Below are positions 2,020 through 38,426 of a stretch of DNA of 64,000 nucleotides, one piece after another. Origin of the DNA: Elusimicrobia bacterium UBA4817. Its GTDB lineage: Bacteria > Elusimicrobiota > UBA8919. The notes beneath the pieces were generated by a model, which made no database searches, was not told where the DNA came from, and saw only the letters and a list, made by a program, of their open reading frames with translations. The stretch covers positions 12,809 to 76,808 of the forward strand of contig DHFT01000039.1 of the NCBI GenBank assembly GCA_002402375.1, in the 5' to 3' direction. Position 1 is the stretch's first letter. Each line of letters opens with the position of its first letter. Position numbers and translations under genes: made by a program.

Positions 2020-4622
2020 TTTTGCTTTATAATTTTCTCAACGGATGATATCGCTTCATCCAGTTTTGAAATATCTTTTCCGCCGGCTTGTGCGAGGTCA
2101 ATTTTTCCGCCTCCTCCGCCGCCTACGATTTTTGATATTTCTTTTACAATTATTCTGGCATCAAATTTATCGGCGAGGTCTTTTGTAATTGACACAATGA
2201 GCGTCGGTTTTTCGTCAATAACAGAACCTAATACCACAATGCCTGATTTGATTTTGTTTTTCAGATTGTCGGAAGTGCTTCTGAGTTCATCTATGGATGT
2301 TATTTCCGTTTTTACCGCCAGTAGTTTTATGCCGTTGATTTCTTTAAGGTTTTTCAGTAAATCGTTTTCCTGTATTTTCGGTGTTTTTGAAATGCCCTTT
2401 TCAAGTTTTTTTTTATCGTCTGCAAGTTTTTGGAGTTTTGTAACGACTTCCGCCCGGGATGATTTCAATATCTCGGCCATTTCATCAATCGTTTCCCGCT
2501 GATTTTTCATAAAGTTATACGCTTCCATTCCGGTTATTGCTTCTATCCGCCGAAGACCGCTTCCGATACTGCCTTCGGATAAAATTATAAATTGTCCGAT
2601 TTCTCCGGTTGATTTACAATGAGTTCCGCCGCACAGTTCTACACTTTCAGGATTTTTTTCGTTTCCGGTAATGACGCACCGAACTTTCTCGCCGTATTTT
2701 TCGCCGAATAAAGCGAGCGCCCCCATTTTTTTTGCCTCGGCCACCGTCGTAATTTTTGTCGTCACTTTCAGATTTTCAAGAATTTTTTCATTAACATATT
2801 TTTCTATTAAAATCAGTTCCTCTTTTTTTAATTGTGTCGGATGGGAAAAATCAAATCTGAATCTGTCGTCGCTGACTTGTGAGCCGCGCTGAACGATATG
2901 GGTGCCGATAATTTGTCTTAAACTCTTATGCAAAAGATGAGTAGCGGTATGATTTCGCATAATGTTTTTTCTTCTTTCAAGAGCAATTTCGGCTCCAACC
3001 GTTTCGCCCGTTTTGATAATGCCTTTTATGATTTTTGCTCTGTGGATGATAAGGTTTTCAACCGGTTTCTGCGTATCAATAATTTCTACCTGACTTTGGA
3101 CTTCGGACTTCGGACTTCGGACTATTAACCTGCCCCTATCCCCAACCTGTCCGCCCGCTTCCCCGTAAAAAGGCGTCTCTTTTAGGATTATTTCCACCTC
3201 ATCGCCTTCGTTTGCCTGTTCAATAATTTTTCCGTCTTTTACTATTGCGGCTATTTTGGTTTTTGTTTTTGTCTCATCGTAGCCGGTAAAAACGGTATCT
3301 GCGAATTTTTTGTGAAGTTCAAAATAATTGCTCATATCAATATCTCCCGAACCTTTCCACGAAGTTTTGGAACGATTTTTTTGTTTCTCCATTTCTTCTT
3401 CAAACCCCTTGTCGTCTATAGATATTTCAGATTCAGCCAGAAGTTCTTTTGTTAAATCAAACGGGAAGCCGTAAGTATCATATAGTAAAAATGCATCTTT
3501 CCCGGAAATTGTTTTTCTGGATTTTTTTAATTCTTCAAGCATTTCAATCCCGCGCTCCAGCGTCATTAAAAATTTTTCTTCCTCCATTTTTATTATTCTT
3601 GCTATGTACTCGCGATTCAAATCCAGTTCAGGATATGCCGGTTTCATCGTCTCAACCACTTCAACTGCGATTCTGTAAAGGAACGGTTTGTCCATCTGCA
3701 ATTTTTTGCCGTGAGTAATTGCTCTTCTCAGGATTCTTCTTAAAACATAACCTCTTCCTTCATTGGACGGTAAAATGCCGTCGGAAATAAGAAATGTGAT
3801 TGCTCTCGCGTGGTCAGCAATTATTTTGGTAGATATATCATTTTTAATATCAGACAGGTTTTTTATAAAATCAATAATTCTTTTAAGCTCGTCGGTTTCA
3901 AAATTTGTTTTTGCCCTCTGAACCACCGCCGCCAGCCGTTCAAGTCCCATCCCGGTATCAATATTTTTTTGCGGAAGATTTTTTAATGTGCCGTCTGCTT
4001 GTTTGTCAAATTGCGTGAATACGAGGTTCCATACCTCAATATACCTGTCGCAGTCGCACCCCGGGCCGCAGGTTTTTTTGCCACAGCCGTTTCCTGTTCC
4101 CGTATCGTATAAAATTTCGGAACAGGGTCCGCAGGGACCGGTTTCTCCCATCTGCCAGAAGTTTGACGCCTCGCCTAATTTTACGATTTTGTTTAAAGGC
4201 AGGATTTTTTCCCAGATTTTGTATGCCTCGTCGTCATCTTTGTAGACGGAAGCGTAAAGTTTGTCCTTATCAAGTTTAAGTTCAACGGTCAGAAATTCCC
4301 ACGCCCACAAAATCGCTTCTTTTTTGAAATAATCGCCGAATGAAAAATTACCGAGCATCTCAAAAAACGTAAGATGTCTTGCGGTATGTCCGACATTTTC
4401 AATATCGGATGTCCTGAAACATTTCTGGACGGACGTCGCCCGCTGGTAATCGCTTTTGATTTTCTGCCTGCCTAAAAAATAATTTTTGAACTGCACCATT
4501 CCCGCCGATGTAAAAAGCAGCGTCGGGTCGGAAGAGGGCACCAGCGAGTCGCTCTTAAAAACGGTATGTTCTTTTTCTTTAAAAAACCTCAAAAATTTTT
4601 GTCTGATTTCGTTTGTAGTCAT
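2016..4622 (-). CDS. alaS: alanine--tRNA ligase
   Basis: 868 aa; N-terminus 'EIRQKFLRFFKEKEHTVFKSDSLVPSSDPTLLFTSAGMVQFK', class II catalytic core, editing domain (HxxxH), C-terminal GGGGG segment. Confidence 0.95.
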   Translation of the reverse strand: MTTNEIRQKFLRFFKEKEHTVFKSDSLVPSSDPTLLFTSAGMVQFKNYFLGRQKIKSDYQRATSVQKCFRTSDIENVGHTARHLTFFEMLGNFSFGDYFKKEAILWAWEFLTVELKLDKDKLYASVYKDDDEAYKIWEKILPLNKIVKLGEASNFWQMGETGPCGPCSEILYDTGTGNGCGKKTCGPGCDCDRYIEVWNLVFTQFDKQADGTLKNLPQKNIDTGMGLERLAAVVQRAKTNFETDELKRIIDFIKNLSDIKNDISTKIIADHARAITFLISDGILPSNEGRGYVLRRILRRAITHGKKLQMDKPFLYRIAVEVVETMKPAYPELDLNREYIARIIKMEEEKFLMTLERGIEMLEELKKSRKTISGKDAFLLYDTYGFPFDLTKELLAESEISIDDKGFEEEMEKQKNRSKTSWKGSGDIDMSNYFELHKKFADTVFTGYDETKTKTKIAAIVKDGKIIEQANEGDEVEIILKETPFYGEAGGQVGDRGRLIVRSPKSEVQSQVEIIDTQKPVENLIIHRAKIIKGIIKTGETVGAEIALERRKNIMRNHTATHLLHKSLRQIIGTHIVQRGSQVSDDRFRFDFSHPTQLKKEELILIEKYVNEKILENLKVTTKITTVAEAKKMGALALFGEKYGEKVRCVITGNEKNPESVELCGGTHCKSTGEIGQFIILSEGSIGSGLRRIEAITGMEAYNFMKNQRETIDEMAEILKSSRAEVVTKLQKLADDKKKLEKGISKTPKIQENDLLKNLKEINGIKLLAVKTEITSIDELRSTSDNLKNKIKSGIVVLGSVIDEKPTLIVSITKDLADKFDARIIVKEISKIVGGGGGGKIDLAQAGGKDISKLDEAISSVEKIIKQK

Positions 4623-6339: not shown

Positions 6340-7851
6340 TTAATGACGGAGATGGCGCATGCCTGTGAATACCATTGAGATTTTATGCTCGTTGCAGACG
6401 GTTATTGATTCGTTATCTTTTACCGAGCCGCCGGGCTGAATAATTGCTTTTACGCCGATTTTTGCTGCTTCGTTGACGACATCTTTGAACGGGAAAAATG
6501 CGTCGGAGGATAAAACAAGCGGTAGACGGTAGACGGTAGACGGTAGACGGATTAAGTTCATTTTCATTTTTGCGATTTTTAGTGAGTCAATCCTTGACAT
6601 TTGGCCGCCGCCGATTCCTACCGTTCGGGTGCCTCTGGCAAGGACGATTGCATTTGATTTTACATATTTTGCGACGGTAAAAGCAAATTTTAACGATTCC
6701 AATTCTTCTTTTGCCGGTTTTGTCTTTGTAACAATTTTTAACTTGTCAAAAATTTTGCTGTCCTTTTCCTGAACAAGAAAGCCGTCGGAAATACTGCGGA
6801 ACTCAAGCGATTGAGCAAGTGAGCGATTAAGCGAGTGAGTTAAAACTCTTAAATTTTGTTTTTGCGAAAATATTTTCAGCGCATCTTTTGAATAATTCGG
6901 CGCAATAACACACTCGGTAAAAATTTTTATTACGTCTCTTGCGGTTCTGCCATCCACGATTTTATTAAACGCTACAATTCCGCCGAATGCCGAAACGGGG
7001 TCGCAGGCAAGAGCATTTTTGTAAGCATCAAAAATAGTTTTAGCGGTTGCAACTCCACAAGGATTATTATGCTTTACAATCACACAAGCAGGTTTTTCAA
7101 ATTCGCAAACCAGATTAAAAGCAGAATCCATATCAAGATAATTGTTATAAGAAAGTTCTTTCCCTTGCAGTTGTTTTACACTTCCGACTTCCGACTTCCC
7201 ACTTCCGATATGGTAAACTGCCGCTTTCTGATGAGGATTTTCACCGTACCGCAAGTCGGAAAATTTTTTAAGTCCAACTGTTATTTTTTCTGGAAACTGC
7301 TCGTCGGTAAAATAATTTGAAATAATAGAATCATAATAAGCGGTATGGCTGAATGCCTTTGCCGCAAGTTTTTTTCTGAATGAAAAATCTATCTTTGAAC
7401 TTTTAATATTATCTATGATGTTAGAATAATCTTTCGTGTCGCAGACCGCCAGAACATTCTCAAAATTTTTTGCGGCCGCGCGGAGCATCGCCACTCCGCC
7501 GATATCTATATTTTCAACTGAAGGTTTTTCTTCAAACGGATAAAGATTTATAACGACGATATCAATCGCGTTAATTTTGTGTTTTTTCAACTCGTCAATA
7601 TGTTGTTTTGTCTTTTTTGCCAGTATTCCCGCGTGGATTTTCGGATGCAGTGTCTTTACCCGCCCGTCAAGGATTTCCGGAAAGCCAGTAATTTTTTCAA
7701 CCGAAACGACGGAAATTCCCACTTTTTTAAGAAACGTTACTGTCCCGCCGGTTGATATAATTTTGACATCCAATTTTTTAAGTTCTTTTGCAAATTCAAC
7801 AATTCCGGTTTTGTCCGATACGCTGATTAATGCTGTTTTAATAGTTTTCAT
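6340..7851 (-). CDS. purH: bifunctional AICAR formyltransferase / IMP cyclohydrolase
   Basis: 503 aa; MGS-like N-terminal domain (KTALISVSDKTG…GGT) and C-terminus 'SDAFFPF…IIQPGGS…MVFTGMRHLRH' matching PurH. Confidence 0.95.
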   Translation of the reverse strand: MKTIKTALISVSDKTGIVEFAKELKKLDVKIISTGGTVTFLKKVGISVVSVEKITGFPEILDGRVKTLHPKIHAGILAKKTKQHIDELKKHKINAIDIVVINLYPFEEKPSVENIDIGGVAMLRAAAKNFENVLAVCDTKDYSNIIDNIKSSKIDFSFRKKLAAKAFSHTAYYDSIISNYFTDEQFPEKITVGLKKFSDLRYGENPHQKAAVYHIGSGKSEVGSVKQLQGKELSYNNYLDMDSAFNLVCEFEKPACVIVKHNNPCGVATAKTIFDAYKNALACDPVSAFGGIVAFNKIVDGRTARDVIKIFTECVIAPNYSKDALKIFSQKQNLRVLTHSLNRSLAQSLEFRSISDGFLVQEKDSKIFDKLKIVTKTKPAKEELESLKFAFTVAKYVKSNAIVLARGTRTVGIGGGQMSRIDSLKIAKMKMNLIRLPSTVYRLPLVLSSDAFFPFKDVVNEAAKIGVKAIIQPGGSVKDNESITVCNEHKISMVFTGMRHLRH

Positions 7852-8329
7852 CGGTGTCCTGTCCCGCGCCTTTTATAAATTTTGCTATGACACTTTCAAT
7901 CGTGTCGTAAGAAAATCCCCTGCCGGCAAGAAACTGAAAAATTTTACTCTTTGCTTTTAACGGTTCAAGTTTTTTATATCTCGCAAGTTTATTTTTTATT
8001 GTGTCAAAGGCCAGTTCCGTCTCGTCAATTTCCAGAGAGCTTAAAATTCCGGATGCCGTTTCGCGCGGTATTCCTTTTCTGTTTAATTCCCGCATAATAA
8101 AATTTTTGCTTTTATTGTGACGCAGGCGGTATTCCATCCATTCTTTCGCAAATTTTTCGTCGTCAATCAATTTTAATTTTTTCAATTTTTCTATTACGGT
8201 ATCAACAACGGTGCTATCATAATTTTTTCCGATTTTATCCCGTATCTCTTTTTCGGAATGGTTTCTCCTGGCAAAAAGCCAGAACGCATATTTTTGTGCC
8301 TTGTGATAATTCGTGGATTTTTCTTTCAT
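7838..8329 (-). CDS. recX: RecX family recombination regulator
   Basis: 163 aa, three-helix repeat architecture, 'YAFWLFARRNHSEKEIRDKI' RecX-like N-terminus. Confidence 0.7.
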   Translation of the reverse strand: MKEKSTNYHKAQKYAFWLFARRNHSEKEIRDKIGKNYDSTVVDTVIEKLKKLKLIDDEKFAKEWMEYRLRHNKSKNFIMRELNRKGIPRETASGILSSLEIDETELAFDTIKNKLARYKKLEPLKAKSKIFQFLAGRGFSYDTIESVIAKFIKGAGQDTDENY

Positions 8330-10149: not shown

Positions 10150-12632
<2,483 letters not shown>

Positions 12633-13604: not shown

Positions 13605-13708
13605 AACACCCCCATTTAACGGCTAACGGCGTGAGAAAGTGAAAAAGAGAGAAAGTAAGAAAGTTAAAACCTTTTTACCTTTTCACGCCTTTTGCCTTTT
13701 CTATTCTT

Positions 13709-14911
13709 TTATAGCAAATGTCCGCATTTTTCCTTTTTAGTTTTCAGGTATCTTTCTGCAAATTTTGATTTAGGTTTTATTTTTATAGGGAGCCGGTTTA
13801 CAACTTTTAGTCCGTAGCCCTCAAGTCCGATAATCTTTTTCGGGTTGTTGGTTAAAAGTTTTATGGTTGAAAGCCCTAAATCTACAAGTATCTGCGCACC
13901 TATTCCGTAATCCCGTAAATCAGGTTTGAAACCCAGTTGTATATTTGCTTCCACGGTGTCATAACCCCTGTCTTGTAATTCATATGCTTTTATTTTATTC
14001 AGTAATCCGATACCTCTTCCCTCCTGATGCATATATAATAAAACGCCGGTTCCTTGTTTTTGGATGATCTGCATTGATTTTTCCAACTGTTCGCCGCAAT
14101 CGCACCGCAGCGAATGAAAAGCGTCGCCGGTTAAACAGGATGAATGCACTCTGACAATAACATTTTTTTTATTTTTGATATCTCCTTTTACCATCGCCAG
14201 ATGATTTTCTTTTTTTAATTTATCCTGATATAAGTGAAGTATGAAATTGCCGTATCTCGTAGGAAAGTTTGGAATCGTTACTATTTTTTCAACAAGTTTT
14301 TCCGTCTGCCGTCTGTATTCAATAATCTGTGCTATTGTAATTATTTTTAATTTATGTTTTTTTGAGAATTTTAGAAGTTGCGTCATTCTTGCCATAGTCC
14401 CGTCTTCGTTCATTATTTCGCAAATTACGCTTGACGGATAAAGCCCTGAAATTTTTGCCATATCCACGCCGGATTCCGTATGTCCCGCTCTGACCAGCAC
14501 TCCGCCTTCTTTATAACGCAGCGGAAAAATATGCCCCGGTTTTATTAAGTCGTCCGGTTTCGTTTTAGGATTAATAATTGTTTTAACCGTCTGCGCCCTG
14601 TCGTGTGCCGAAATGCCGGTGGTTATTCCTTTTTTTGAGTCAACCGAGACGGTGAATGCGGCTTCCTTTACTTCAAGTCCGCTTGTTACCATCGGATGAA
14701 GTTCCAACTCGTCAAGTCGTTTTCCTTCCATAGCAATGCATATTAAACCCCGTCCTTCCTTCGCCATAAAATTTATTTTTTCAGGAGTGATTTTTTCGGA
14801 AGCATAAACTATATCGCCTTCATTTTCCCTTGCCGGGTCGTCAACGATTATAACTGCTTTGCCTTTTTTGAAATCTTTTATCGCTTCTTTAATATCAGAA
14901 AATTCAATCAT
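13709..14911 (-). CDS. ribBA: bifunctional 3,4-dihydroxy-2-butanone-4-phosphate synthase / GTP cyclohydrolase II
   Basis: 400 aa; DHBP synthase N-terminal half (DDPARENEGD) and GTP cyclohydrolase II C-terminal half (Cys cluster 'CLTGDAFHSLRCDCG'). Confidence 0.95.
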   Translation of the reverse strand: MIEFSDIKEAIKDFKKGKAVIIVDDPARENEGDIVYASEKITPEKINFMAKEGRGLICIAMEGKRLDELELHPMVTSGLEVKEAAFTVSVDSKKGITTGISAHDRAQTVKTIINPKTKPDDLIKPGHIFPLRYKEGGVLVRAGHTESGVDMAKISGLYPSSVICEIMNEDGTMARMTQLLKFSKKHKLKIITIAQIIEYRRQTEKLVEKIVTIPNFPTRYGNFILHLYQDKLKKENHLAMVKGDIKNKKNVIVRVHSSCLTGDAFHSLRCDCGEQLEKSMQIIQKQGTGVLLYMHQEGRGIGLLNKIKAYELQDRGYDTVEANIQLGFKPDLRDYGIGAQILVDLGLSTIKLLTNNPKKIIGLEGYGLKVVNRLPIKIKPKSKFAERYLKTKKEKCGHLL

Positions 14912-15527
14912 AAAATCCCGCCTTTTTTAGAGTTTCAAGTGTTATTTTATTTTTTTCTTTTTGTTGCAAAACATATTTTGCAAGAATGTCGGTTTCCAAA
15001 TTAACGGTATCTCCGTTTTTTTTTTCTTTAAGTGTCGTGTTATTTAATGTATGAGGAATTATTGCCGTTGAAAATGAATTTGTTTTTTTTTCCGCTACCG
15101 TTAAACTGATTCCGTCAATAGCCACCGAACCCTTTTCTGCGATATATTTTGACAGATTTTCAGGTATTGAAAATTGCCAAATTTCCGAATTCCCCGATTT
15201 TTTTATTTTTAATATTTTTCCGGTTCCGTCAATGTGTCCCGTAACGAAATGTCCGCCTAATTTACCGTCGGATTTTAATGCTCTTTCAAGATTAATAATG
15301 CTTCCAATTTTTAATTCTCCCAAATTTGTTTTTTTTAAGGTTTCTTCGGAAATGTCAGCCGTGAACTCGTGAACTCGTGAACTCGCTAAATCGCTAACTG
15401 TCAAACAAATACCGCTAACACAAATACTGTCGCCAATGTTTATATCATCAAGTTTTGTCTCGACGGTAATTTGTGTTTTATTTATTTTTTTTACAGTTCC
15501 TAAATCTTCAATTATTCCAGTGAACAT
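14904..15527 (-). CDS. ribE: riboflavin synthase alpha subunit
   Basis: 'MFTGIIEDLGTV' N-terminus and the internal duplicated lumazine-binding repeat. Start moved to the internal ATG. Confidence 0.9.
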   Translation of the reverse strand: MFTGIIEDLGTVKKINKTQITVETKLDDINIGDSICVSGICLTVSDLASSRVHEFTADISEETLKKTNLGELKIGSIINLERALKSDGKLGGHFVTGHIDGTGKILKIKKSGNSEIWQFSIPENLSKYIAEKGSVAIDGISLTVAEKKTNSFSTAIIPHTLNNTTLKEKKNGDTVNLETDILAKYVLQQKEKNKITLETLKKAGFYD

Positions 15528-16545: not shown

Positions 16546-17608
16546 TTAAATATCCCTCAAACAAAAAATCTTCTTCTATTTTTTCTACAGATATATTTTT
16601 AACGTCCGCGGCATTTTTTACGTATTCCGTACTGTTAATAATTTTAGGACAGATAAAAAACATAATTTTATCAACTAATTTTTCTTTAAGAAATGATTTG
16701 GCAACCGTTTCTCCGCCTTCAACAATCAGCGACGAAATACTCATTTTGCCGAGTTTAACCAGCAATTTTTTAATATCCAGAAAATTGTTTTTTAATGGGA
16801 GTTCAATTATCCCTATACCCATTTTTTTAAGTTTTTCTTTTTTAACTCTGTTTGAATTTATTGATGTTGCAATTATCGTTTTTGACTTACCGTTTAGTAC
16901 ATTTGTACTAAATGGAATTTTTAATCCGGTATCAAGAATTACTCTGACAGGATTTTTTCCTTTTCCGTGTGATGTCAGTTTCGGGTTGTCTTTTAATACA
17001 GTATTTATTCCAACCAGTATAGCATCGGTTCGGCTTCGTAATTGATGAACGGTTTCTCTGGATTTTTCAGAACTGAGCCATTTTGAATCTCCGCTCTCCG
17101 TTTTTGTTTTACCGTCTAAAGAGTATGCCATTTTAAGAATTACAAAGGGCGTTTTTGTTTTGATGTATTTTATGTATGTCTCGTTTAATTTTTTTGCTTC
17201 TTTTTCCATCACACTCACTTTACACTTTACACCTTTCACTTTCAACTGTCTTATCCCTTTCCCGCCAACCGCCGGGTTCGGGTCTTTTGTTGCGATAACA
17301 ACTTTTTTTATGCCGCTATTTATTATCTGCGGTACACAAGGCGGAGTTTTTTTATTGTAATGACAGCATGGCTCCAAGTTAACATACATCGTCGCATCTT
17401 TCGGGTTTTTACATTTTTTTAATGCCTCAACTTCCGCATGTGGCCCGCCAAAATATTTATGATAACCTGTTGAAAGAATTTTTCCGTTTTTTACGATTAC
17501 ACAACCGACCATAGGATTCGGACTGACTTTACCTTGTCCTTTTTTAGCAAGTTTTATTACCAATTGCATAAATTTTCTGTCTTCGTCTGTGTAATCTGTT
17601 TTTTTCAT
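16538..17608 (-). CDS. ribD: bifunctional diaminohydroxyphosphoribosylaminopyrimidine deaminase / 5-amino-6-(5-phosphoribosylamino)uracil reductase
   Basis: 356 aa; CMP/dCMP-type deaminase 'HAEVEAL…PCCHY…PPC' N-terminus and RibD reductase C-terminal domain. Confidence 0.9.
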   Translation of the reverse strand: MKKTDYTDEDRKFMQLVIKLAKKGQGKVSPNPMVGCVIVKNGKILSTGYHKYFGGPHAEVEALKKCKNPKDATMYVNLEPCCHYNKKTPPCVPQIINSGIKKVVIATKDPNPAVGGKGIRQLKVKGVKCKVSVMEKEAKKLNETYIKYIKTKTPFVILKMAYSLDGKTKTESGDSKWLSSEKSRETVHQLRSRTDAILVGINTVLKDNPKLTSHGKGKNPVRVILDTGLKIPFSTNVLNGKSKTIIATSINSNRVKKEKLKKMGIGIIELPLKNNFLDIKKLLVKLGKMSISSLIVEGGETVAKSFLKEKLVDKIMFFICPKIINSTEYVKNAADVKNISVEKIEEDFLFEGYLNV

Positions 17609-17668: not shown

Positions 17669-17701
17669 GAATAAATTCACCTTTACAAAAAACATATTAT
17701 A

Positions 17702-17843
17702 CTCTTCTATCATCCGGACTTTACCGTCGGTATCTGAATTTCACAGATTCGGTCCCGAACATTTTTAATAAAAAATGTGAGAGATTAGCGGACTTTTACC
17801 GCCGGTCGGGAATTCCTGTTTAGGTCACCCCACCCCGAAGAGT
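17702..17843 (-). promoter_or_regulatory. FMN riboswitch (RFN element) leading the rib operon
   Basis: The minus strand reads 'CTCTTCGGGGTGGGGTGACCTAAACAGGAATTCCCGACCGGCGGTAAAAGTCCGC…GGGACCGAATCTGTGAAATTCAGATACCGACGGTAAAGTCCGGATGATAGAAGAG', matching the RFN consensus blocks GGGG(C/T)GGGTGAAATTCCC, GACCGGCGGTA.AAGTCCGC and CCGACGGTAAAGTCCGGATG. Confidence 0.85.
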
Positions 17844-17849
17844 AATGTA

Positions 17850-17877
17850 ATTATACAAAAAATAAAATAAATGTCAA
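17850..17877 (-). promoter_or_regulatory. sigma70-type promoter (TTGACA-N16-TATAAT) for the FMN riboswitch / rib operon
   Basis: The minus strand reads TTGACA, 16 nt, TATAAT, ending about 7 nt before the aptamer 5' end. Confidence 0.5.
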
Positions 17878-18797
17878 TTAAATTTTTTGGAAAAAGAAAT
17901 ATAAGTGGTTCTGTCAAACACGCTGTTGACGGCACTTGCAAAATCAAATCCGAAATCCTTCCATAGTATTCCGATCCCGAAATTTGTTCCGTTAATTTTT
18001 CCCGCTTTGTTGAGATATCCGCCTCTTAAAAAAAGCCAGTTGAGGTAAGAGTACTCGCCGCTGAATCTCGGACGGAATATATCATCTTTTTCCCGTAAAA
18101 AATCAAAAGATACGTCAAAATTATTTTCGCGGTTATTTAACAGGGTATATGACAGTCCGCATCGGACGGAACTTGGCAGGTCGTCTTTTACAGGGTCGTT
18201 GGAATAAATGACCTTTGTTCCGAAATTTTCGCCGGAAAATCCGAGTTTAAGATTTCTTACAAAATCAACTTTATATAAAATTCCGAAATCAATTGCTTGG
18301 GCGTTCCCGATAGTTTTTCCAAAAATGGGATTTTTTTCATATCTGTAAATGTATTTTAGATTTATTCCGAAGGAGAGATTGTGAAAAAGATTTCTTCCAT
18401 AGGCGACAGAAAACGCCCAGTCGTTCCATATCAGTTCGCCCATATCGTAGTTAAATTCGTCGGTAACGGGTATCGGGGTAATTCTGTAACTTAATATGCC
18501 GATAGCCATGGCGCCATGTTTTTTTAGCGACAACAGTCCGCCGAGATACTGCATAACGGCATCGCCTTGAGGCGCCGGCGAATGGGAAAAAGTTATTTCG
18601 CTTTCCGAATCCGCAATGCCTGCCGGATTATGAAAAAATGATGATGCGTCTAATTTTGTTGCGGCGGATGTTTCAGCTAAAGAAATTATTCTTGCGCCTC
18701 CTGCCAGTTTCAGAAAATCGGCGCCGGTGTGAGTGGAAGCGTAGAGGCAATTAAAAATTAAAAATGGAAAATTAAAAATTAAAATGATTGTTTTCAT
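17874..18797 (-). CDS. FadL/PorV/PorQ-like outer-membrane beta-barrel protein (T9SS-associated?)
   Basis: 307 aa, signal peptide, N-terminal 'GADFLKLAGGARIISLAETSAATKLDASSFFHNPAGIA' FadL/PorV-like motif, alternating beta-strand pattern; tandem paralogue of the next gene. Confidence 0.5.
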   Translation of the reverse strand: MKTIILIFNFPFLIFNCLYASTHTGADFLKLAGGARIISLAETSAATKLDASSFFHNPAGIADSESEITFSHSPAPQGDAVMQYLGGLLSLKKHGAMAIGILSYRITPIPVTDEFNYDMGELIWNDWAFSVAYGRNLFHNLSFGINLKYIYRYEKNPIFGKTIGNAQAIDFGILYKVDFVRNLKLGFSGENFGTKVIYSNDPVKDDLPSSVRCGLSYTLLNNRENNFDVSFDFLREKDDIFRPRFSGEYSYLNWLFLRGGYLNKAGKINGTNFGIGILWKDFGFDFASAVNSVFDRTTYISFSKKFN

Positions 18798-19741
18798 TAA
18801 AATTTGCAGTTCAGCGTAAATCTGTTAACGTCGGTCAATTTTTCATGTGAGGTGAATGAGTAGTCAATGGAGATTATTTTTGCCGAAAATCCCGCACCGA
18901 AAGAATAGTTCTGCAATGTTGTATATCCCGCCCGCAGTTTGAAATTTTTGACGGCGTTAAGTTCAACTCCCAAATTACCGTTCAAGATATTTTCTCTCTG
19001 TCTAACCCCGTCAACGGACAAAAGCAGTTTATCAAAATTCCTGCTTATTCCCAGTCGCAATTCCGACGGTAAAACGTCCTTTTCGCCGCCGAATGAAATT
19101 TTACTGCCTACATTTCTTATACAAAAACCGAAATCAAAAGGCAGGTTGTAGCCGGAATATAATAATCCCAAATCCGCCGCAATTGCCGTTGCCGATTCCC
19201 CTGCCAGTTTCTCGTTCAGATATTTTACGGTTATTCCTGCATCCAAAGGATAGATTTTTCTTGCGTAGGAAATACCGGCGACCGCGTCGCTGTTTAAGAA
19301 TTCGTCCCGTCCTATTCCGCGTTCATCTCTTTCAACATCTTTTGATGACAGATATTTTAATGTTATGCCGATGTTTCCTTTAATTTTTTGGATGTATGTT
19401 GAGAACTTCATATCCTCAAGATTGACATCTTCAAAATATTCCGAATGCGAAAAAGAAAAATTATAGTCGGGCAGGTTTGAAATTGCTGCGGGATTAAAAT
19501 CCAACGCTCCAAGATTTTCCGATAAGGATGTGACCGCTTCCGCCATGGCGGATGTTTTTGCCTCGGGGCTGATTCGTAGCAACAGTCCGGCAGATGTTCC
19601 GGTGTCAGAGGCAGAGAACAAAGTTAAAGGTATAAGGTTAAAGGTTAAAATAAAGCAGATGAAAAATGAAAAATGAAAAGTTGAAATTTTGGCAGTATTT
19701 AGACCTTTAACTTTTAATTTTAACCTTCTTTTTATTTTCAT
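18797..19741 (-). CDS. FadL/PorV/PorQ-like outer-membrane beta-barrel protein (paralogue)
   Basis: 314 aa, signal peptide, 'GTSAGLLLRISPEAKTSAMAEAVTSLSENLGALDFNPAAIS' motif, C-terminal Phe; start overlaps the downstream gene. Confidence 0.5.
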   Translation of the reverse strand: MKIKRRLKLKVKGLNTAKISTFHFSFFICFILTFNLIPLTLFSASDTGTSAGLLLRISPEAKTSAMAEAVTSLSENLGALDFNPAAISNLPDYNFSFSHSEYFEDVNLEDMKFSTYIQKIKGNIGITLKYLSSKDVERDERGIGRDEFLNSDAVAGISYARKIYPLDAGITVKYLNEKLAGESATAIAADLGLLYSGYNLPFDFGFCIRNVGSKISFGGEKDVLPSELRLGISRNFDKLLLSVDGVRQRENILNGNLGVELNAVKNFKLRAGYTTLQNYSFGAGFSAKIISIDYSFTSHEKLTDVNRFTLNCKF

Positions 19742-21279
19742 TTTTTTATGACTGTAATCTTTCCTTTACAGGAATCAGTTTGGGTTTTTGCTGCATAAAA
19801 ATATATTCCCGATGCAACAGTAGAACCATTTTCATTTTTGCCGTCCCATATAACGGAAGTTCCGCTGCCGTCAATTTCTCTGACGAGGTTTCCTTCCAAA
19901 TTATAAATTTTTATGTTTATCACAGAGTTATCCGGGAAATTTTTTATTGTCAGATTTCCGGTTGAAGGGTTATAAGGGTTCGGTGCGTTGACGACATAAT
20001 TTAATGACTGCGGTCCGTAGGTCACTTTTGAATAATAATCAGCCAAAAACTCATCCCAGTTTGTCGCCTGACAGAAACTTAAATTTTCATAATTACCGTC
20101 GGGATTATTCCAAATTTCCCAATCATCTTTTGTTTTCGGAAAGTTTATAGAAAGTCCGTGTGAATTTTTATGGGTGCTTCCAACTCTGTTTGCGAGCACA
20201 CAATCATTAATGGAGTCCATTACATTGCTCGCAGAGTTTCTCAAAGACGCCGAGTCCAAATCGGGGTTTTGTTCAATAATATAGGCTAAATCATAAATGT
20301 CAATTCCGCCGTATTGAACATTGCTTGATTCACCGTAATAATCAACCGCATCTCTTGTAAGATATAAAGGAATAGTTTTTTTTGTTGAGATAAGTTGATA
20401 TGCAAAATTATCTATTGCCGCCGCCAACTCGCCGATTTTTGACAAATCCACTGCCGATGCGGTTCTTTTATCAAGCACTGAAGAAAAATAAGAAACTGCC
20501 TCGTCGGAATACGCCTTATCCCAGATGTCAACAATTTTTTGCGAGAATGTTTTCGGGTCATAATTCGGATTTGAAACAAGTTCCGTCAAAATTCCGTCAT
20601 AAGGCCAGCCGTATTCGTTTTCTTCGGAGGCAACCATATAGTTCGCAGAATCTTTTATCTGATATGCGATTTCAATTTGTGCCATAAGGCATGCGTCCAA
20701 TCCGATGATGTCAATATTTTTTCCGAGATATGTTTTTATCGTAGAAAGTGCGTTTCCGAGTTCCGCCGTTGTCAGATAATCATTGTCGTCGGTAGTATCG
20801 TCCCATGCTATTCCTTTTTTTAGTTTTGGTGATTTGGGCCACCATCCGCCTCCGTGATTCCACACGACAAGACAATAATTTTCCGCCGGATAATTCGCTA
20901 TTGTCCATGTTGAAAATACGACAAGCGTTGCGTGGTCGCCTGTGTTCAATTCATTTGTTGTTGCAGACGGAAGTAAATTTGCAATAGTTATTGTAGGCGT
21001 GTTTATTGTGAATGTGTCGGTATCGTTTTGTATTTTGTAAAGGTAAGTATTACCGTCGCCGTTTTTATCCGCAAGAACAATTATGTTTACATCAGTTGAA
21101 TTTGCGGCAACTTCCATTTTGTTTATGTCCCGTTTCAACTGGTCGCCTTTCAGTGATGTATCAAGAGAATTATCACCTGCGATGTAGACGATAAATGTCC
21201 ATTTTGCCGCGGATAAAAATGTGCTAAAAAATATGGACAGGCATAATACCTGTCCATATTTAAGAATTTTTTTTGTCAT
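19738..21279 (-). CDS. clostripain-like (C11) cysteine peptidase with T9SS C-terminal sorting domain
   Basis: Signal peptide; 'WTFIVYIAGDNSLD', His-Gly dyad 'VVWNHGGGW', catalytic Cys 'IGLDACLMAQIE'; C-terminal approx 80 aa 'KIYNLEGNLV…SGIYFYAAKT…KITVIKK' matching the Por-secretion CTD pattern. Confidence 0.75.
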   Translation of the reverse strand: MTKKILKYGQVLCLSIFFSTFLSAAKWTFIVYIAGDNSLDTSLKGDQLKRDINKMEVAANSTDVNIIVLADKNGDGNTYLYKIQNDTDTFTINTPTITIANLLPSATTNELNTGDHATLVVFSTWTIANYPAENYCLVVWNHGGGWWPKSPKLKKGIAWDDTTDDNDYLTTAELGNALSTIKTYLGKNIDIIGLDACLMAQIEIAYQIKDSANYMVASEENEYGWPYDGILTELVSNPNYDPKTFSQKIVDIWDKAYSDEAVSYFSSVLDKRTASAVDLSKIGELAAAIDNFAYQLISTKKTIPLYLTRDAVDYYGESSNVQYGGIDIYDLAYIIEQNPDLDSASLRNSASNVMDSINDCVLANRVGSTHKNSHGLSINFPKTKDDWEIWNNPDGNYENLSFCQATNWDEFLADYYSKVTYGPQSLNYVVNAPNPYNPSTGNLTIKNFPDNSVINIKIYNLEGNLVREIDGSGTSVIWDGKNENGSTVASGIYFYAAKTQTDSCKGKITVIKK

Positions 21280-21282
21280 TTT

Positions 21283-23316
21283 TTATTTTAATACAACCGC
21301 CCGTTTTGTTCCGATTTCTTTTCCGTTGACGGTGAGACGGTAATAATAAACGCCCCTGGAAAGTTTGTCGCCGGAATCATATTTTACAGAGTGTTCGCCT
21401 TGCGTCTGGTCTTCGTCAACAATGGTATCAACTTCCTGTCCCGCTACATTGTAAAGTTTGATGGATACCCTGCCGCCCTCCGGTATAAAATAATTAAATG
21501 TCGTCGCCGGGTTAAACGGGTTGGGATAATTCTGACCGAGCGTTGCCTGTTTTACGCCCCCGTCTTCAGATTCAACTTCATCATCAACATCACTTCTTGA
21601 TGTCGCATAAGAGGAGCCGACGGTTACCGTCGGTTGTTTGGAAATTGCCGTAAGTGTTCCGCCGTTTCCCGCTGTTCTTGTCGTAAATTTTGCCGTGCCT
21701 TCCGACGGTTGTGTGGTAAATTTGAGGTATGAAAGTTTTAACTTGTCGCCGCTTCCGTACGCGAGCCGGTCAGCGGGTATCCCTGTTATTGTAACTTTTT
21801 GCCCCGAAACAGAAGCCGTCAGTTTATATGATGTCGTCCGATATTTATAAATATACGCCTTGACATATCCCTTGCCTGTTGATGCTGTGTTTTGAGGCGA
21901 TGTCCATCCGGTCGGAATCGTTACCTCCGCCGTTCCGCTTCCGAGTGAGCCCGCTGCTGACGGCGTCAGAGTGTATGTTATTGATGTGTAATATGTGCTT
22001 GGTGCTACGCCTTTTTTGGAAAGTGATGTTGTTCCGCTTCCGTCAGCACCTGTTTGAGTTGAACCTCCGCCGCTTCCGAGGTTTCCCGCATAGTATCTGT
22101 TCAAGAAATCATCCCACTTGTTTGCCGATTCAGAACCGTACAAAATTGCAGATGTATAGGCACTATCATAATATGATTTTGTTTTCGGGAAATAAACGCA
22201 CATTCCGTAAGAACCGTATTTTGCCGTATCATTTCTCGGCGAGGTAAATCTTGTTTTTACAACTGCGTCGGTTACTGCGGTTTTTAACTCTGATGCCGCC
22301 GTCTGAATAGAAGAACTTGTAACCTTGCTTCGGACCTGTTCTGCAAATCTGTAGATATCAAGTCCGTAATAACCGTCTGATTCCGAATACGCCTTGCAGT
22401 TTTCTCTGGCGGATTTTATTGATGTTAATTGCGAGTTATCGTTCATCGCATCTGCAAACGCATTCAGTTTTAATACAAGGTTGCTGACTTTCGGTATATC
22501 AATTGCCGATTGTGTTATTGCTTCCGATGTCGGATATGATTCTGCATATTTGTTGACTATTGTTTCGCCAAGTTGTTTCGGTGTCGCCGTCGGATTTGTC
22601 GCAAGCCATGAAAGAATTGTGTCGTGAGGCCAGCCGTCGCCCGGTTCCGTCTCTTCCGAGCCGACCATTACACCGTCGGTAGTATTTATTACATTTCTTA
22701 ATTCGTAAGCAACTTCCAGATGTCCCATAAGGCAGGCATCCATACCGATTAAATCAAAAGTATGTGATGCATTCTGGATTGCTGTTCTTACTTCTTTCAT
22801 ATAAAGACAATCATCGTTGTTCCCGTCGTCCCAGCATATTGCTCTTTCCATCGGCGAAAAAGAAATTGAGCGGTCGCGCCATCCGCCGCCGTGATTCCAC
22901 AAAACGAGCGCATACCTGTCCGCCGGATAATTAAGCCACACCCATGTTATAAAATTTGTGAGGGTTGTCGGCGAGCCCATATTTGATTCGCCGAGGTCTT
23001 CAAGCGCGTTTGCTGTCGTCGGCGTCATACCTTTTGTCACTTTGAATCTTTTACATGTTTTCCAGTCGCCGTAAGTTGTATCATAACCGGATGCCCTGTC
23101 AAACTGGACAACGATGTTTATATCGGCGTTGCTTCCCACCTTTGCCATTTCCAGAAAATCATTTACACCGGCGTCTTCAAGATTGTTGTCGGCGTCCAGA
23201 TAAACGGCGTAAGTCCATTTTGCTTTTGCGAAACACGGATTAACGCAGATAACACCGCAGATTAACACAGATAAAAACAATCCTGCCAATCCTACTGTCC
23301 AAACCCTTTTCAACAT
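21283..23316 (-). CDS. clostripain-like (C11) cysteine peptidase with T9SS C-terminal sorting domain (paralogue)
   Basis: Signal peptide; 'WTYAVYLDADNNLE', 'LVLWNHGGGW', 'IGMDACLMGHLE'; Ser/Thr/Gly-rich middle region; C-terminal 'KLYNVAGQEV…RGVYYYRLTVNGKEIGTKRAVVLK' CTD. Confidence 0.75.
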   Translation of the reverse strand: MLKRVWTVGLAGLFLSVLICGVICVNPCFAKAKWTYAVYLDADNNLEDAGVNDFLEMAKVGSNADINIVVQFDRASGYDTTYGDWKTCKRFKVTKGMTPTTANALEDLGESNMGSPTTLTNFITWVWLNYPADRYALVLWNHGGGWRDRSISFSPMERAICWDDGNNDDCLYMKEVRTAIQNASHTFDLIGMDACLMGHLEVAYELRNVINTTDGVMVGSEETEPGDGWPHDTILSWLATNPTATPKQLGETIVNKYAESYPTSEAITQSAIDIPKVSNLVLKLNAFADAMNDNSQLTSIKSARENCKAYSESDGYYGLDIYRFAEQVRSKVTSSSIQTAASELKTAVTDAVVKTRFTSPRNDTAKYGSYGMCVYFPKTKSYYDSAYTSAILYGSESANKWDDFLNRYYAGNLGSGGGSTQTGADGSGTTSLSKKGVAPSTYYTSITYTLTPSAAGSLGSGTAEVTIPTGWTSPQNTASTGKGYVKAYIYKYRTTSYKLTASVSGQKVTITGIPADRLAYGSGDKLKLSYLKFTTQPSEGTAKFTTRTAGNGGTLTAISKQPTVTVGSSYATSRSDVDDEVESEDGGVKQATLGQNYPNPFNPATTFNYFIPEGGRVSIKLYNVAGQEVDTIVDEDQTQGEHSVKYDSGDKLSRGVYYYRLTVNGKEIGTKRAVVLK

Positions 23317-23357
23317 ACCCTTCCTCCCGCCACCGTATCTATTGAATTTCTATTATT

Positions 23358-23386
23358 GTAATAACACAAAAATCAAAATTTGTCAA
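23358..23386 (-). promoter_or_regulatory. candidate sigma70-like promoter (TTGACA-N17-TATTAC) upstream of the C11 peptidase genes
   Basis: The minus strand reads TTGACAAATTTTGATTTTTGTGTTATTAC, about 40 nt upstream of the 21283..23316 start, which has a GGGAGGAAGG ribosome-binding site. Confidence 0.35.
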
Positions 23387-23394
23387 GTAGTTTT

Positions 23395-24672
23395 CTAAAA
23401 ACCGAAGCCCATTCCGAAGACCGTCTGTGATGTGGTTAAACTTATTTTATCGGTTTCGTTCTTTATGTCTCTTGTAAAGGAATATAAATTTCCCGATGAG
23501 CGATATTCCAAAAACGCCGATGCCGTTTCACCCAGTTTAATCCTTAATCCGAGCGGTATTCTGAACAGGAATCCTACATTAAATTGGTCCAGCGGTTTTT
23601 TCCATGTAGAGCCGTGGTACTGGTAAATGTAAGGTGATGTTGTATTATTCAAGGTTAATCCGATGCCGAGTCCGAGATAAGGTTGAACCGTTCTGCTTGA
23701 AAAACGGAAAAGTAAATCAAACGCCATAAGGTAAGTATTGACTTTGAGATAATCGTCAACATAAAAATTGAATGCGCTTGTTGAGAGGTCATTTAGGGTT
23801 ACCGTTGTTTTTTGTGCGGTGATTTTTTGCGCATAATGGGATATTTCTCCTTCAAAACCCAGCAGTTTCCCCGACCCGTAGCCGCCCATTCTGACACCCC
23901 AGAGTAGTCCGTCGCTTTCCGTTTCAAGGTCTTCCCAATCTATCTTGGAATAGGTCGGGTCGGTGGAAGAATAGGTTCCGTTTCCGTTCATATCAAGAGA
24001 TAATTCATACTCGTAAATCCGGGTTGAACTATTTTCAAAACTGAGATTTATTTTTCCGGTCCCGCTTCCGCCGAGAAAAATATCTACGAATGTGTCCAAT
24101 TTTTTTACGGGAGTGTAAGACGGCTGATACGGTTGTTGCGCGCTCACTGCCGGTTGTTGCATTTGTTGATTCACCGTCGGTTGCACCGTCGGCATATCCG
24201 ACCATATTTTTTTTACTTCAACGGAAGACGTGGCGATAACTTCCGCCGTTTCCGTGTTTATCAACCGCGCATTTATTTCCACCATTCCGTTTTCTACATC
24301 AAGGAGAGTTCCGGTTATAATTGCACCGACACCTAAAATCTTTCCGATTTTTTTTGTGCTTTCAACATCAATTATACCGGTTGTGCCGAGATTTTGTTCC
24401 GTCAAAACCTTTTCAAGAAGTTGTCTTTCTATTACCTGGAATTTTTTTAATTTTACTATTCGGGTTGTTAAACGTTCGGAAACGATAGCCCCGCCTTCCG
24501 ACTTTCTGCCGTCAAGGTAAATAAAAGGCATTATTGCTATTTTGGTTTGCGGCAATAAAGACGCCGAATCCGAGAACTCTTTTGCCATTTTATTATATGC
24601 GTCCTCGCGTGCAAAAGTTTTTGATGAGAGTATTAACAATAAAACAAATAAGACGTAATACTTTTTTTTCAT
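23395..24672 (-). CDS. outer-membrane lipoprotein: LpoB/CsgG/TolB-N-like periplasmic domain, Gln/Pro-rich linker, C-terminal beta-barrel
   Basis: Start moved to ATG 'MKKKYYVLFVLLL' (GAGGGGGA ribosome-binding site). 'IAIMPFIYLDGRKSEGGAIVSERLTTRIVKL…FQVIERQLLEKVLTEQNL…KIGKILGVGAIITGTL…VEINARLINTETAEVIAT' pattern, then a QQPxxQP linker, then alternating beta-strands ending 'GMGFGF'. Confidence 0.5.
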   Translation of the reverse strand: MKKKYYVLFVLLLILSSKTFAREDAYNKMAKEFSDSASLLPQTKIAIMPFIYLDGRKSEGGAIVSERLTTRIVKLKKFQVIERQLLEKVLTEQNLGTTGIIDVESTKKIGKILGVGAIITGTLLDVENGMVEINARLINTETAEVIATSSVEVKKIWSDMPTVQPTVNQQMQQPAVSAQQPYQPSYTPVKKLDTFVDIFLGGSGTGKINLSFENSSTRIYEYELSLDMNGNGTYSSTDPTYSKIDWEDLETESDGLLWGVRMGGYGSGKLLGFEGEISHYAQKITAQKTTVTLNDLSTSAFNFYVDDYLKVNTYLMAFDLLFRFSSRTVQPYLGLGIGLTLNNTTSPYIYQYHGSTWKKPLDQFNVGFLFRIPLGLRIKLGETASAFLEYRSSGNLYSFTRDIKNETDKISLTTSQTVFGMGFGF

Positions 24673-24695
24673 AAATAAATAATCCCCCTCAGAAA

Positions 24696-24923
24696 TTATT
24701 TGATTTTGCATCCGGGACAGCAACCGGTGATATTATTTGTCATATCGCAGGAACCACTTTTACAGCCGCCGGCCGAACTGCTTACAGCGAAGTTGGAAAA
24801 AGTTTTCGTAATATCGGAACTCCCGCACTGTTCACATTTGGGTTTTTCCGTATCAGTTGTTATATTTACAAGCAGTTCAAAATTCGCCCCGCACTTTTTA
24901 CAGATAAAAGAATGTATAGGCAT
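24696..24923 (-). CDS. FmdB-family zinc-ribbon protein
   Basis: 75 aa; 'MPIHSFICKKCGANFE…CEQCGS' CxxC…CxxC plus a Cys-rich tail. Confidence 0.7.
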   Translation of the reverse strand: MPIHSFICKKCGANFELLVNITTDTEKPKCEQCGSSDITKTFSNFAVSSSAGGCKSGSCDMTNNITGCCPGCKIK

Positions 24924-37358: not shown

Positions 37359-38426
37359 CTATATGCTATTATAAAAAATTGCGTTTAATCTTGCAAGCCT
37401 TTCTTTTTTAATTTCTGCCGGGATGTCGTCTTTCATATAAAACGCTTTCGTATTTTCTCTCGGCGAATACTTAAAAGTGAATGCCGACTTGAAGCCGACT
37501 TTTTTTATGATGTCCAGTGTCTGCCGAAAATCTTTTTCTGTTTCAGTCGGAAATCCGACAATTATGTCGGTTGTAATTGCAACACCGGGTATTTTTTTTC
37601 TGAGTTTTTTGATAATTTTTAGGTACTTTCCCCGCGTATATTTTCTATTCATAAGTTTAAGAATTTTATTTGAACCGGACTGCAAAGGTAAATGAATCTG
37701 CCGAGTGACCTTTTTACATGAAGCGATTGCGTTGATGATTTTGTCGGACATATCTTTCGGATGACTGGTCATAAAACCGATTTTTTTTATTTGAGGAATT
37801 TTATTAAGTTCAATCAGTAAATCGGCAAAATCAAATTTTCCAAATTTATAGCTATTTACATTCTGCCCGAGCAGGGTTATTTCGTTCCTACCCCGCGAAA
37901 TAAGTTTTTTTACATCGGCGAGTATATCTTTTTTAGGTCTTGATATTTCGTCGCCTCTTACAAACGGCACTACACAGTAAGAGCAGAAATTGGAGCATCC
38001 TTTCGTTATAGTTACGAATTCCGTTCCTTTATTGTTAGAATTTTTGGTTTTTGGATTTTTCGGTGTTATGTTAACGGTATCCTTTACTATTTCAGAAAAA
38101 TTTTCTATTTCCGTTGCAGGAATGATTTTATCAATATAGGGGAACTTTTTTTTAAGTTTTTCTTTCAAGCGTGAAGCAACGCAACCTGCTACAAAAATTT
38201 TTAATTTTTTATTTTTAATCTTTAATTGCTTCAATTCTCCGATAAAACTGAACGCTCTCTCTTCCGCATGCTGTCTTACCGTGCAGGTATTGGCGATGAT
38301 TATGTTGGCTTTGCGAATGTCGTTACATCTTTCATAACCCGCATCGTGCAGTTTTTCCGACATAAAATCCGAATCCGCCACATTCATCTGACAACCCATT
38401 GTGCGAATAAAGAAGGTTTTAGGCAT
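37359..38426 (-). CDS. MiaB-family radical-SAM methylthiotransferase lacking a TRAM domain
   Basis: 355 aa; MTTase N-domain Cys (C12, C48, C82), radical-SAM 'CSNFCSYC'; the protein ends right after 'RLARLNAIF', where the TRAM domain of MiaB/RimO/MtaB would follow. Confidence 0.7.
   Translation of the reverse strand: MPKTFFIRTMGCQMNVADSDFMSEKLHDAGYERCNDIRKANIIIANTCTVRQHAEERAFSFIGELKQLKIKNKKLKIFVAGCVASRLKEKLKKKFPYIDKIIPATEIENFSEIVKDTVNITPKNPKTKNSNNKGTEFVTITKGCSNFCSYCVVPFVRGDEISRPKKDILADVKKLISRGRNEITLLGQNVNSYKFGKFDFADLLIELNKIPQIKKIGFMTSHPKDMSDKIINAIASCKKVTRQIHLPLQSGSNKILKLMNRKYTRGKYLKIIKKLRKKIPGVAITTDIIVGFPTETEKDFRQTLDIIKKVGFKSAFTFKYSPRENTKAFYMKDDIPAEIKKERLARLNAIFYNSI

Follow-up and report, generated by a model that had tools for sequence, protein, structure and literature searches.

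The stretch analysed here, referred to as the window, comprises 64,000 nucleotides (nt) of contig DHFT01000039.1 of Elusimicrobia bacterium UBA4817 (GCA_002402375.1), an Elusimicrobiota metagenome-assembled genome from groundwater-type samples with a GC content of 38%. The subject is a set of short tandem arrays with 7-nt units in the 5' coding regions of two adjacent genes, termed gene A and gene B, which encode putative outer-membrane proteins. Related sequences are cited by L numbers. The genes concerned are as follows.

19738..23316, minus strand: two clostripain-like (C11) peptidase genes with type IX secretion C-terminal sorting domains (Por_Secre_tail / TIGR04183), upstream of genes B and A
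18797..19741, minus strand: gene B, putative PorV/PorQ-family outer-membrane protein, 314 amino acids (aa), NF033709, ATG at 19741-19739
17874..18797, minus strand: gene A, putative PorV/PorQ-family outer-membrane protein, 307 aa, NF033709, ATG at 18797-18795

Tandem arrays in the putative signal-peptide codons of genes A and B

Both products matched NF033709, the NCBIfam hidden Markov model of the PorV/PorQ family (cut-off 90), with 149.8 bits for gene A and 147.6 bits for gene B. The equivalog cut-offs were missed for PorV (250; 92.5 and 69.6 bits for genes A and B, respectively) as well as for PorQ (220; 59.3 and 106.7 bits), and judged by these profile scores the two genes are assigned at the level of the PorV/PorQ family only. 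Read from the sequence, the ATG of gene A overlaps the stop codon of gene B (TAATG), and the ATG of gene B overlaps the stop codon of the upstream C11 peptidase gene (ATGA), indicating that genes A and B and the two C11 peptidase genes form one translationally coupled operon. An association with type IX cargo is present, as the two peptidases with C-terminal sorting domains are encoded directly upstream of genes B and A. A type IX secretion-like module was also noted in the window at 19738..24723, consisting of a CsgG/FlgO-like protein, two C11 peptidases and two PorV/PorQ-family barrel proteins.

Four repeat tracts were found near the 5' ends of the two genes, and all of them lie wholly inside putative signal-peptide codons (gene A 4-17; gene B 5-16, 21-28 and 31-40). 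Together they account for the larger part of the putative Sec signal peptides.

18749..18786, minus strand: gene A array, CATTTTA ATTTTTA ATTTTCC ATTTTTA ATTTTTA ATT on the coding strand, codons 4-17, encoding IILIFNFPFLIFNC
19696..19727, minus strand: gene B A-rich quasi-array AAGGTTAAAATTAAAAGTTAAAGGT, codons 5-16, encoding the Lys/Arg-rich n-region RRLKLKVKGLNT (inverted repeats I1-I3)
19659..19679, minus strand: gene B array 1, perfect (TTTTCAT)3, codons 21-28 (TFHFSFFI), start of the hydrophobic core; Tandem Repeats Finder (TRF) period 7, 3.0 copies, score 42
19623..19649, minus strand: gene B array 2, imperfect (ACCTTTA)~4, codons 31-40 (ILTFNLIPLT), remaining hydrophobic core; TRF period 7, 3.9 copies, score 40

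The gene A array was detected by TRF at 18749..18784 (period 7, 5.1 copies, 86% matches, score 58), and can alternatively be read as a 21-nt duplication, with two 20-nt copies lying 21 nt apart. The A-rich quasi-array of gene B repeats array 2 in inverted orientation, with 94% complementarity over 16 nt, and contains a weaker TRF tract at 19706..19724. By rule-of-thumb features, both N-termini fit a signal peptide: the n-region is charged, the core of 18-26 residues is uncharged, and LYA or FSA precedes S at the cleavage site. The match to NF033709 begins after the putative signal peptide in both genes, at residue 24 in gene A and at residue 53 in gene B.

The initial annotation had described two repeat strings overlapping the ribosome-binding site, the start codon and the signal-peptide codons. 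Both strings exist, at 18749..18786 and 19626..19680, and TRF together with NF033709 bore out that 7-nt units occur at the 5' end of the coding sequence in two neighbouring genes for outer-membrane proteins. They do not, however, reach into the ribosome-binding site or the start codon: both genes are encoded on the minus strand, the arrays start at least 8 nt downstream of the start codons, and the 'atg' strings that had been seen lie within the arrays and are read on the plus strand.

That the repeats exist and are not random was shown by TRF in comparison with Markov simulation and by shuffling of codon order. Arrays in the window with a TRF score of at least 40 comprised nine of period 7 and three of period 8, while order-3 Markov simulations expect 0.05 and 0.1, respectively. 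Perfect arrays of at least three copies were confined to period 7 (four arrays) and period 8 (one array); none was found in the window at periods 5, 6 or 9-15. Shuffles restricted to the signal-peptide codons reached the lag-7 periodicity of gene A in 32 of 20000 cases (p=0.0016) and that of gene B in none of 20000 (p<5e-5). In 129 kb from relatives there were 22 arrays of period 7 and 8 of period 8, and L021 and L022 likewise showed the bias to these two periods. Of the recurring unit GGAAGTC, only one rotation is moderately common as a genomic word (rank 226 of 7276, with 32 copies), and no conclusion follows from this.

Reading frame, copy number and phase variation

It had been proposed that the two tracts form the classic arrangement of slipped-strand phase-variable surface proteins. 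According to this explanation they would be true contingency loci, at which slips of one heptamer switch both PorV/PorQ-family proteins on and off at high frequency. Several observations fit. The unit of 7 nt is not divisible by 3 and lies inside the 5' open reading frame (ORF), and a secretion operon encodes the two products, which are outer-membrane proteins. It had also been predicted that a change of one unit alters N-terminal length or frame, and simulated changes of one or two units gave peptides of 17-36 aa; a rescuing start codon downstream, which the same annotation had named as an objection, was not found, as the in-frame starts come too late to keep the signal peptide. Since unit changes truncate the product and no start codon rescues it, the potential for an OFF state is real. 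A one-unit polymorphism at a sister array in purH and extreme sequence turnover between lineages at both sites, described below, point in the same direction.

Two known systems offer a comparison. The leader-peptide coding region of the Neisseria opa genes reportedly contains CTCTT pentamer repeats, as is said to have been found by Stern and colleagues in 1986. The opa tracts are long perfect repeats that are highly polymorphic both within a strain and from strain to strain. As in genes A and B, a tandem repeat that is not a multiple of 3 encodes the hydrophobic core of the signal peptide of an outer-membrane protein, and one unit shifts the frame. Unlike opa, genes A and B have perfect runs of 2-3 units, invariant consensus assemblies and exclusively in-frame alleles, and the repeats extend beyond surface genes. 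The second system, neuO of E. coli K1, carries (AAGACTC)n in its 5' coding region with 3-53 repeats, most commonly 20; 65.6% of 64 genomes were OFF, and a single culture held measurable minority alleles differing by plus or minus one unit (PMC13001214). It resembles genes A and B in having a 7-nt unit in the 5' ORF, where full-length translation needs a frame-keeping number of units, and it shows that heptamer tracts are capable of phase variation, some genomes having only 3 repeats (PMC13001214). In contrast to neuO, neither OFF alleles nor large repeat counts were seen at genes A and B in the consensus assemblies.

Copy number was compared among such assemblies. The window was 100% identical to L010 (Logan SRR5324132) and L011 (ENA ERZ27315072) over 9.9 kb and 3.8 kb, both arrays included. 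In a second lineage, represented by five Hainich/Logan assemblies (L003-L006, L020), the tracts were identical to each other, and they also agreed within each of the replicate pairs L001/L002, L007/L017 and L009/L019. Uniform copy number had been named in advance as speaking against phase variation, and this is what the consensus sequences show for the replicates of five lineages. Contig scans of genomes gave three loci and those of metagenomes four, all from lineages already seen, so that the number of independent lineages stays at eight. Contigs ending inside arrays (L013 8824-8851, L014 10942-10971 and the P0012 contig) were considered as signs of heterogeneity, but a k-mer assembly limit on perfect repeats of 30 nt fits better.

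The alleles themselves also argue against a switch. Gene B was in frame in 8/8 lineages and gene A in 7/7 with a fully covered 5' end, to be set against the OFF fraction in neuO. Perfect repetition extends over no more than 3.0 units in gene B and 2 units in gene A. In five lineages with 88-92% protein identity, the spacer length of gene A was identical (73 nt), the third unit of its array was interrupted in all, and point substitutions were scattered through the other units, which suggests decay by substitution. Constant length, an interrupted unit and scattered substitutions together are the signature of an old, frozen tract. Furthermore, arrays of the same kind occur in alaS, ligA and purH, where switching cannot be adaptive, and their presence in essential housekeeping genes indicates that they are not a surface-gene device. 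What stands of the proposed arrangement is the frame-breaking 7-nt unit in the 5' ORF; the short perfect runs, the uniform copy number and the housekeeping arrays do not fit it. As far as consensus sequences can tell, the arrays of genes A and B appear to fall short of what defines a contingency locus in their tract length, in polymorphism and in restriction to a gene class, and this explanation is considered unlikely.

Concerted evolution at shared array sites

Gene B orthologues share 82-85% identity with gene B of the window in the mature domain, and different arrays encode their signal peptides.

Window: (TTTTCAT)3 + (ACCTTTA)4
L001 and L003: (CTTACTCA)4
L014: (TGCTTCC)3.6
L013: (ATTTTTTC)~4
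L007 and L009: ATTTTTA-type
L008: non-repeat

At gene A, six lineages have (ATTTTTA)5, L013 has (ACTATTC)5, and L014 has a perfect (TCTATTC)4.3. By the same rule-of-thumb features, nearly all of these N-termini combine an n-region of +1 to +8 with 15-26 uncharged core residues and with small residues at -3/-1. Exceptions were seen in L013, where the gene A core is 11 residues long, and in L007 and L009, where gene B has AES and AEG at the cleavage site. The N-termini thus appear to keep a signal-peptide layout whatever unit encodes them. In L007, an array of the gene A type also occurs between genes, at 8123-8166; this copy reads FPIFNFTFLIFNC in one frame and adjoins two terminator-like hairpins and a poly-G run resembling a sequencing artefact.

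Sister arrays were detected in seven sites of conserved genes in the window.

3092..3123, minus strand: alaS, (CGAAGTC)4.6
6520..6550, minus strand: purH site 2, (TCTACCG)4.4 on the coding strand
7180..7208, minus strand: purH site 1, (CGGAAGT)4.1
12032..12061, minus strand: ligA, (TTCCGAC)4.3
15360..15385, minus strand: ribE, octamer (GAGTTCAC)3.2
17216..17242, minus strand: ribD, (TAAAGTG)3.9
38196..38227, minus strand: miaB, (AAAAATT)4.6 on the coding strand, the gene A unit in opposite orientation

Arrays at the same sites of the alaS/purH/ligA/ribE set were found in two relatives.

L021, 2484-2515, 5791-5822, 11284-11313 and 15644-15675: same-site arrays
L022, 10739-10757 and 11385-11417: same-site arrays

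Total length at the shared alaS, purH, ligA and ribE sites is nearly constant, and the units are lineage-specific and homogenised within a lineage. Between lineages, the units differ by a small number of substitutions, which have spread from unit to unit. At purH site 2, orthologues at 69-82% identity encode a stretch of 10 aa, with a 7-aa period in most of them (RLPSTVYRLP, RFPLPASRFP, HLPPTTHHLP, HLPSSIFHLP and others), and the DNA units stand in register: CGTCTAC in the window, C[G/A]CTTCC in L021 and CATCTTC in L022. At the ribE site, the unit changes at constant length from AATTTCAC in L001 through GATTTCAC in 2/4 units in L021 to GAGTTCAC in the window, a stepwise series that reads as concerted evolution in progress. 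The ligA and alaS sites showed the same pattern, in that the units change together while the length stays constant. In ribD, the array takes the place of non-repeat sequence in a length-neutral manner, as judged from relatives that lack the array. In the window and its relatives, at least 15 different units were counted, mostly intragenic.

Units are also shared between sites in opposite orientation. In the window, purH site 1 (7180..7208) matches ligA (12032..12061), with alaS one base off, and in L022 the arrays at purH site 1 (10739-10757) and purH site 2 (11385-11417) match each other.

Direct evidence for slippage came from purH. In L012 (DNFW01000087.1, GCA_003486845.1), one CGGTAGA unit is lost (window 6520..6526), which frameshifts and truncates PurH (HAX61593). 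This loss of 7 nt was the only indel in 28.5 kb between the window and the near-identical assembly GCA_003486845.1. A deletion of exactly one unit between near-identical assemblies indicates that slippage does occur. The genes for MutS and MutL are present and intact.

These comparisons suggest a class of arrays with 3-5 units of 7 or 8 nt, located at fixed, sequence-tolerant coding sites and evolving in concert at nearly constant length. The PorV-family sites seem to behave like the other array sites, only faster.

Further observations were made at individual sites. Next to the miaB array, 14/19 single-nucleotide polymorphisms between the window (38306..38394) and L016 (DNFW01000019.1) fall within 90 nt adjoining the array, a cluster that probably represents a short recombination tract. 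Near position 2700 of L022, a GC-rich insert of 24 nt, CCTGCCCGACGACCGCCAGGCGGG, interrupts the (CTTACCA)n array of the ligA site and leaves the frame open. The alaS gene of L022 is split at 12400-12410; a frameshift in an array was considered as the cause and rejected, as the break lies at a poly-A run and reflects either a sequencing error or a real frameshift. Just after alaS, L022 carries a perfect 16-nt array of 6.9 copies (14459-14568).

Origin of the arrays and neighbouring features

A mobile-element origin, in which the arrays are stacked target-site duplications or the preferred insertion site of an element of the miniature inverted-repeat transposable element (MITE) type, is very unlikely. 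Support comes from hairpin-rich, stop-free, in-frame inserts, matching no Rfam family, in the ATTTTTA arrays of both genes in L009 and L019, two independent samples, always at the same point after ATTTTTAAT.

L009, 3623-3694: gene B insert, 72 nt (same structure in L019)
L009, 4561-4680: gene A insert, 120 nt (same structure in L019)

The split ligA array of L022 and the intergenic array copy of L007 could be read in the same way. However, the L009/L019 insert occurs in that lineage only, with no copy in the window or any other lineage, and is younger than the arrays. Moreover, every cycle of insertion and excision would add one unit and break the frame, and stacked duplications cannot yield length-neutral concerted evolution as seen at ribE, purH and ligA.

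A function at the nucleic-acid level, with the inverted array pair of gene B forming an mRNA hairpin near the start codon or a promoter that controls expression, is even harder to credit. The inverted repeats 19621-19652 and 19696-19727 (32 nt at 72%, with a 16-nt core at 94%) would allow such a structure, and intergenic inverted array pairs exist elsewhere in the window (13631-13700), L021 and L022. Against this, the predicted fold was no better than that of shuffled sequences (z = -1.16; 26/200 shuffles fold as well), promoter-like hits numbered 5 compared with a shuffle mean of 6.0, no Rfam family matched the arrays (an FMN riboswitch, outside the arrays, was the only match), and the inverted arm is absent from relatives. 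Chance low complexity, by which AT-rich hydrophobic codons (TTT, ATT, TTA, AAT) merely look repetitive in a genome of low GC content, is the least credible explanation of all: it is true that the gene A array is imperfect, with A and T as its only bases, and that ATTTTTA is the 15th commonest heptamer in the window, but composition-preserving shuffles seldom matched the lag-7 signal, orthologous signal peptides use perfect arrays that contain G or C ((CTTACTCA)4.4, (TGCTTCC)3.6 and (TCTATTC)4.3), and the excess across the window is specific to period 7.

The intergenic inverted array pairs, which are hairpin arms built of tandem repeats, may act as terminators.

Window: 13631..13664 and 13669..13700
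L021: 4180-4212/4227-4253 and 5223-5253/5265-5303
L022: 2179-2211/2224-2252

The tracts in genes A and B are probably tolerated hot spots of a lineage-wide process that generates arrays of 7- and 8-nt units, rather than a dedicated phase switch. In the mechanism envisaged, adjacent units would misalign during replication or repair and give loops of 7-8 nt, which are probably too large for MutS-type mismatch repair. In E. coli, loops larger than about 4 nt are poorly repaired by MutS. As such loops probably escape repair, units could be duplicated, deleted or converted. Selection on frame and protein length would then fix only length-neutral outcomes, namely the duplication of one unit paired with the loss of another, or conversion, and this would homogenise the units and keep the array slippery. 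In a signal peptide, a T-rich unit read in all three frames would give residues rich in F, L and I, and the A-rich inverse orientation would give residues rich in K. Signal peptides should therefore accept almost any T-rich unit, which would explain both the toleration and the fast turnover of arrays there, as well as the location of 3-4 of about 12 arrays of the window within about 200 nt of signal-peptide sequence. A one-unit slip would yield a null allele and affect gene A by polarity; this resembles a mutational hazard more closely than regulated switching.

Several points weigh against this explanation. The mechanism was deduced from sequence comparison. Plain slippage explains neither the absence of the frame-neutral periods 6 and 9 nor the length-neutral first replacement of non-repeat sequence, as at ribD. 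Units are shared between sites, often in opposite orientation, of which a ban on stop codons in three frames may explain part. The perfect (TTTTCAT)3 and the very fast turnover at gene B would also fit selection for variability, and signal-peptide function was judged by rule-of-thumb features only.

A further-reaching proposal, offered tentatively and with clearly less confidence than the hot-spot explanation, is that a distinctive process in this clade writes and maintains arrays of 3-5 units of 7-8 nt at fixed coding sites, essential genes included, and keeps them perfect through concerted evolution at constant length. Units might be exchanged between sites and orientations, and signal peptides might be repeatedly re-invented, with T-rich units giving the core and inverted A-rich units the n-region. 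Slips would then stochastically inactivate genes, including purH and the PorV-family pair.

Tandem repeats have been noted in other genomes. The repeats of Borgs reportedly create new protein regions, and their units inside ORFs are said to be divisible by 3, according to work ascribed to Schoelmerich and colleagues in 2023. The arrays described here are likewise fast-evolving, perfect in-ORF repeats that generate new peptide sequence, but with units of 7 or 8 nt they are read in all three frames, and gain or loss of a single unit shifts the frame. Heptamer repeats are known from Xanthomonas (GGGAATC) and Nostoc (GGGGA(C/T)T) (PMC4692102) and from Beggiatoaceae (TAACTGA) (PMC4679880), and a polymerase-footprint bias of slippage has been proposed for the heptamer excess (Mrazek 2007, as cited in PMC4692102). 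These share with the window a strong excess of period 7, often with 2-6 units per set. They differ in that each genome has one dominant unit, mostly intergenic, whereas the window class has many units, mostly in conserved genes and at fixed sites, evolves in concert at constant length, and is enriched in period 8 too. A description of this array pattern was not found in the searchable literature, and a survey of Elusimicrobia genomes (10.1101/765248) mentions neither repeats nor secretion.

The analysis removes a call of phase variation for genes A and B that was likely false, and suggests that short non-triplet repeats in a 5' ORF are insufficient for calling a contingency locus when the genome is littered with such repeats. 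The wider, genome-wide pattern of arrays is more interesting than genes A and B alone. Frame-breaking arrays of 7 and 8 nt persist, homogeneous, at the same positions of alaS, ligA, purH and ribE in relatives whose PurH is 69-82% identical to that of the window. Slippery repeats are usually expected to be removed from essential genes by selection, and the pattern contradicts this. The clade may also serve as a natural system for the mechanism behind the long-noted, unexplained heptamer excess of bacteria, and the signal-peptide sites would provide a concrete route by which functional signal peptides could be rebuilt from simple repeats.

Downstream of gene A, a flavin mononucleotide (FMN) riboswitch (RF00050, 96.1 bits) was detected in the window at 17698..17846 on the minus strand, in front of ribD, and is an ordinary feature. 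It is preceded by a perfect TTGACA-16-TATAAT promoter (17877..17850, minus strand), which overlaps the end of gene A.

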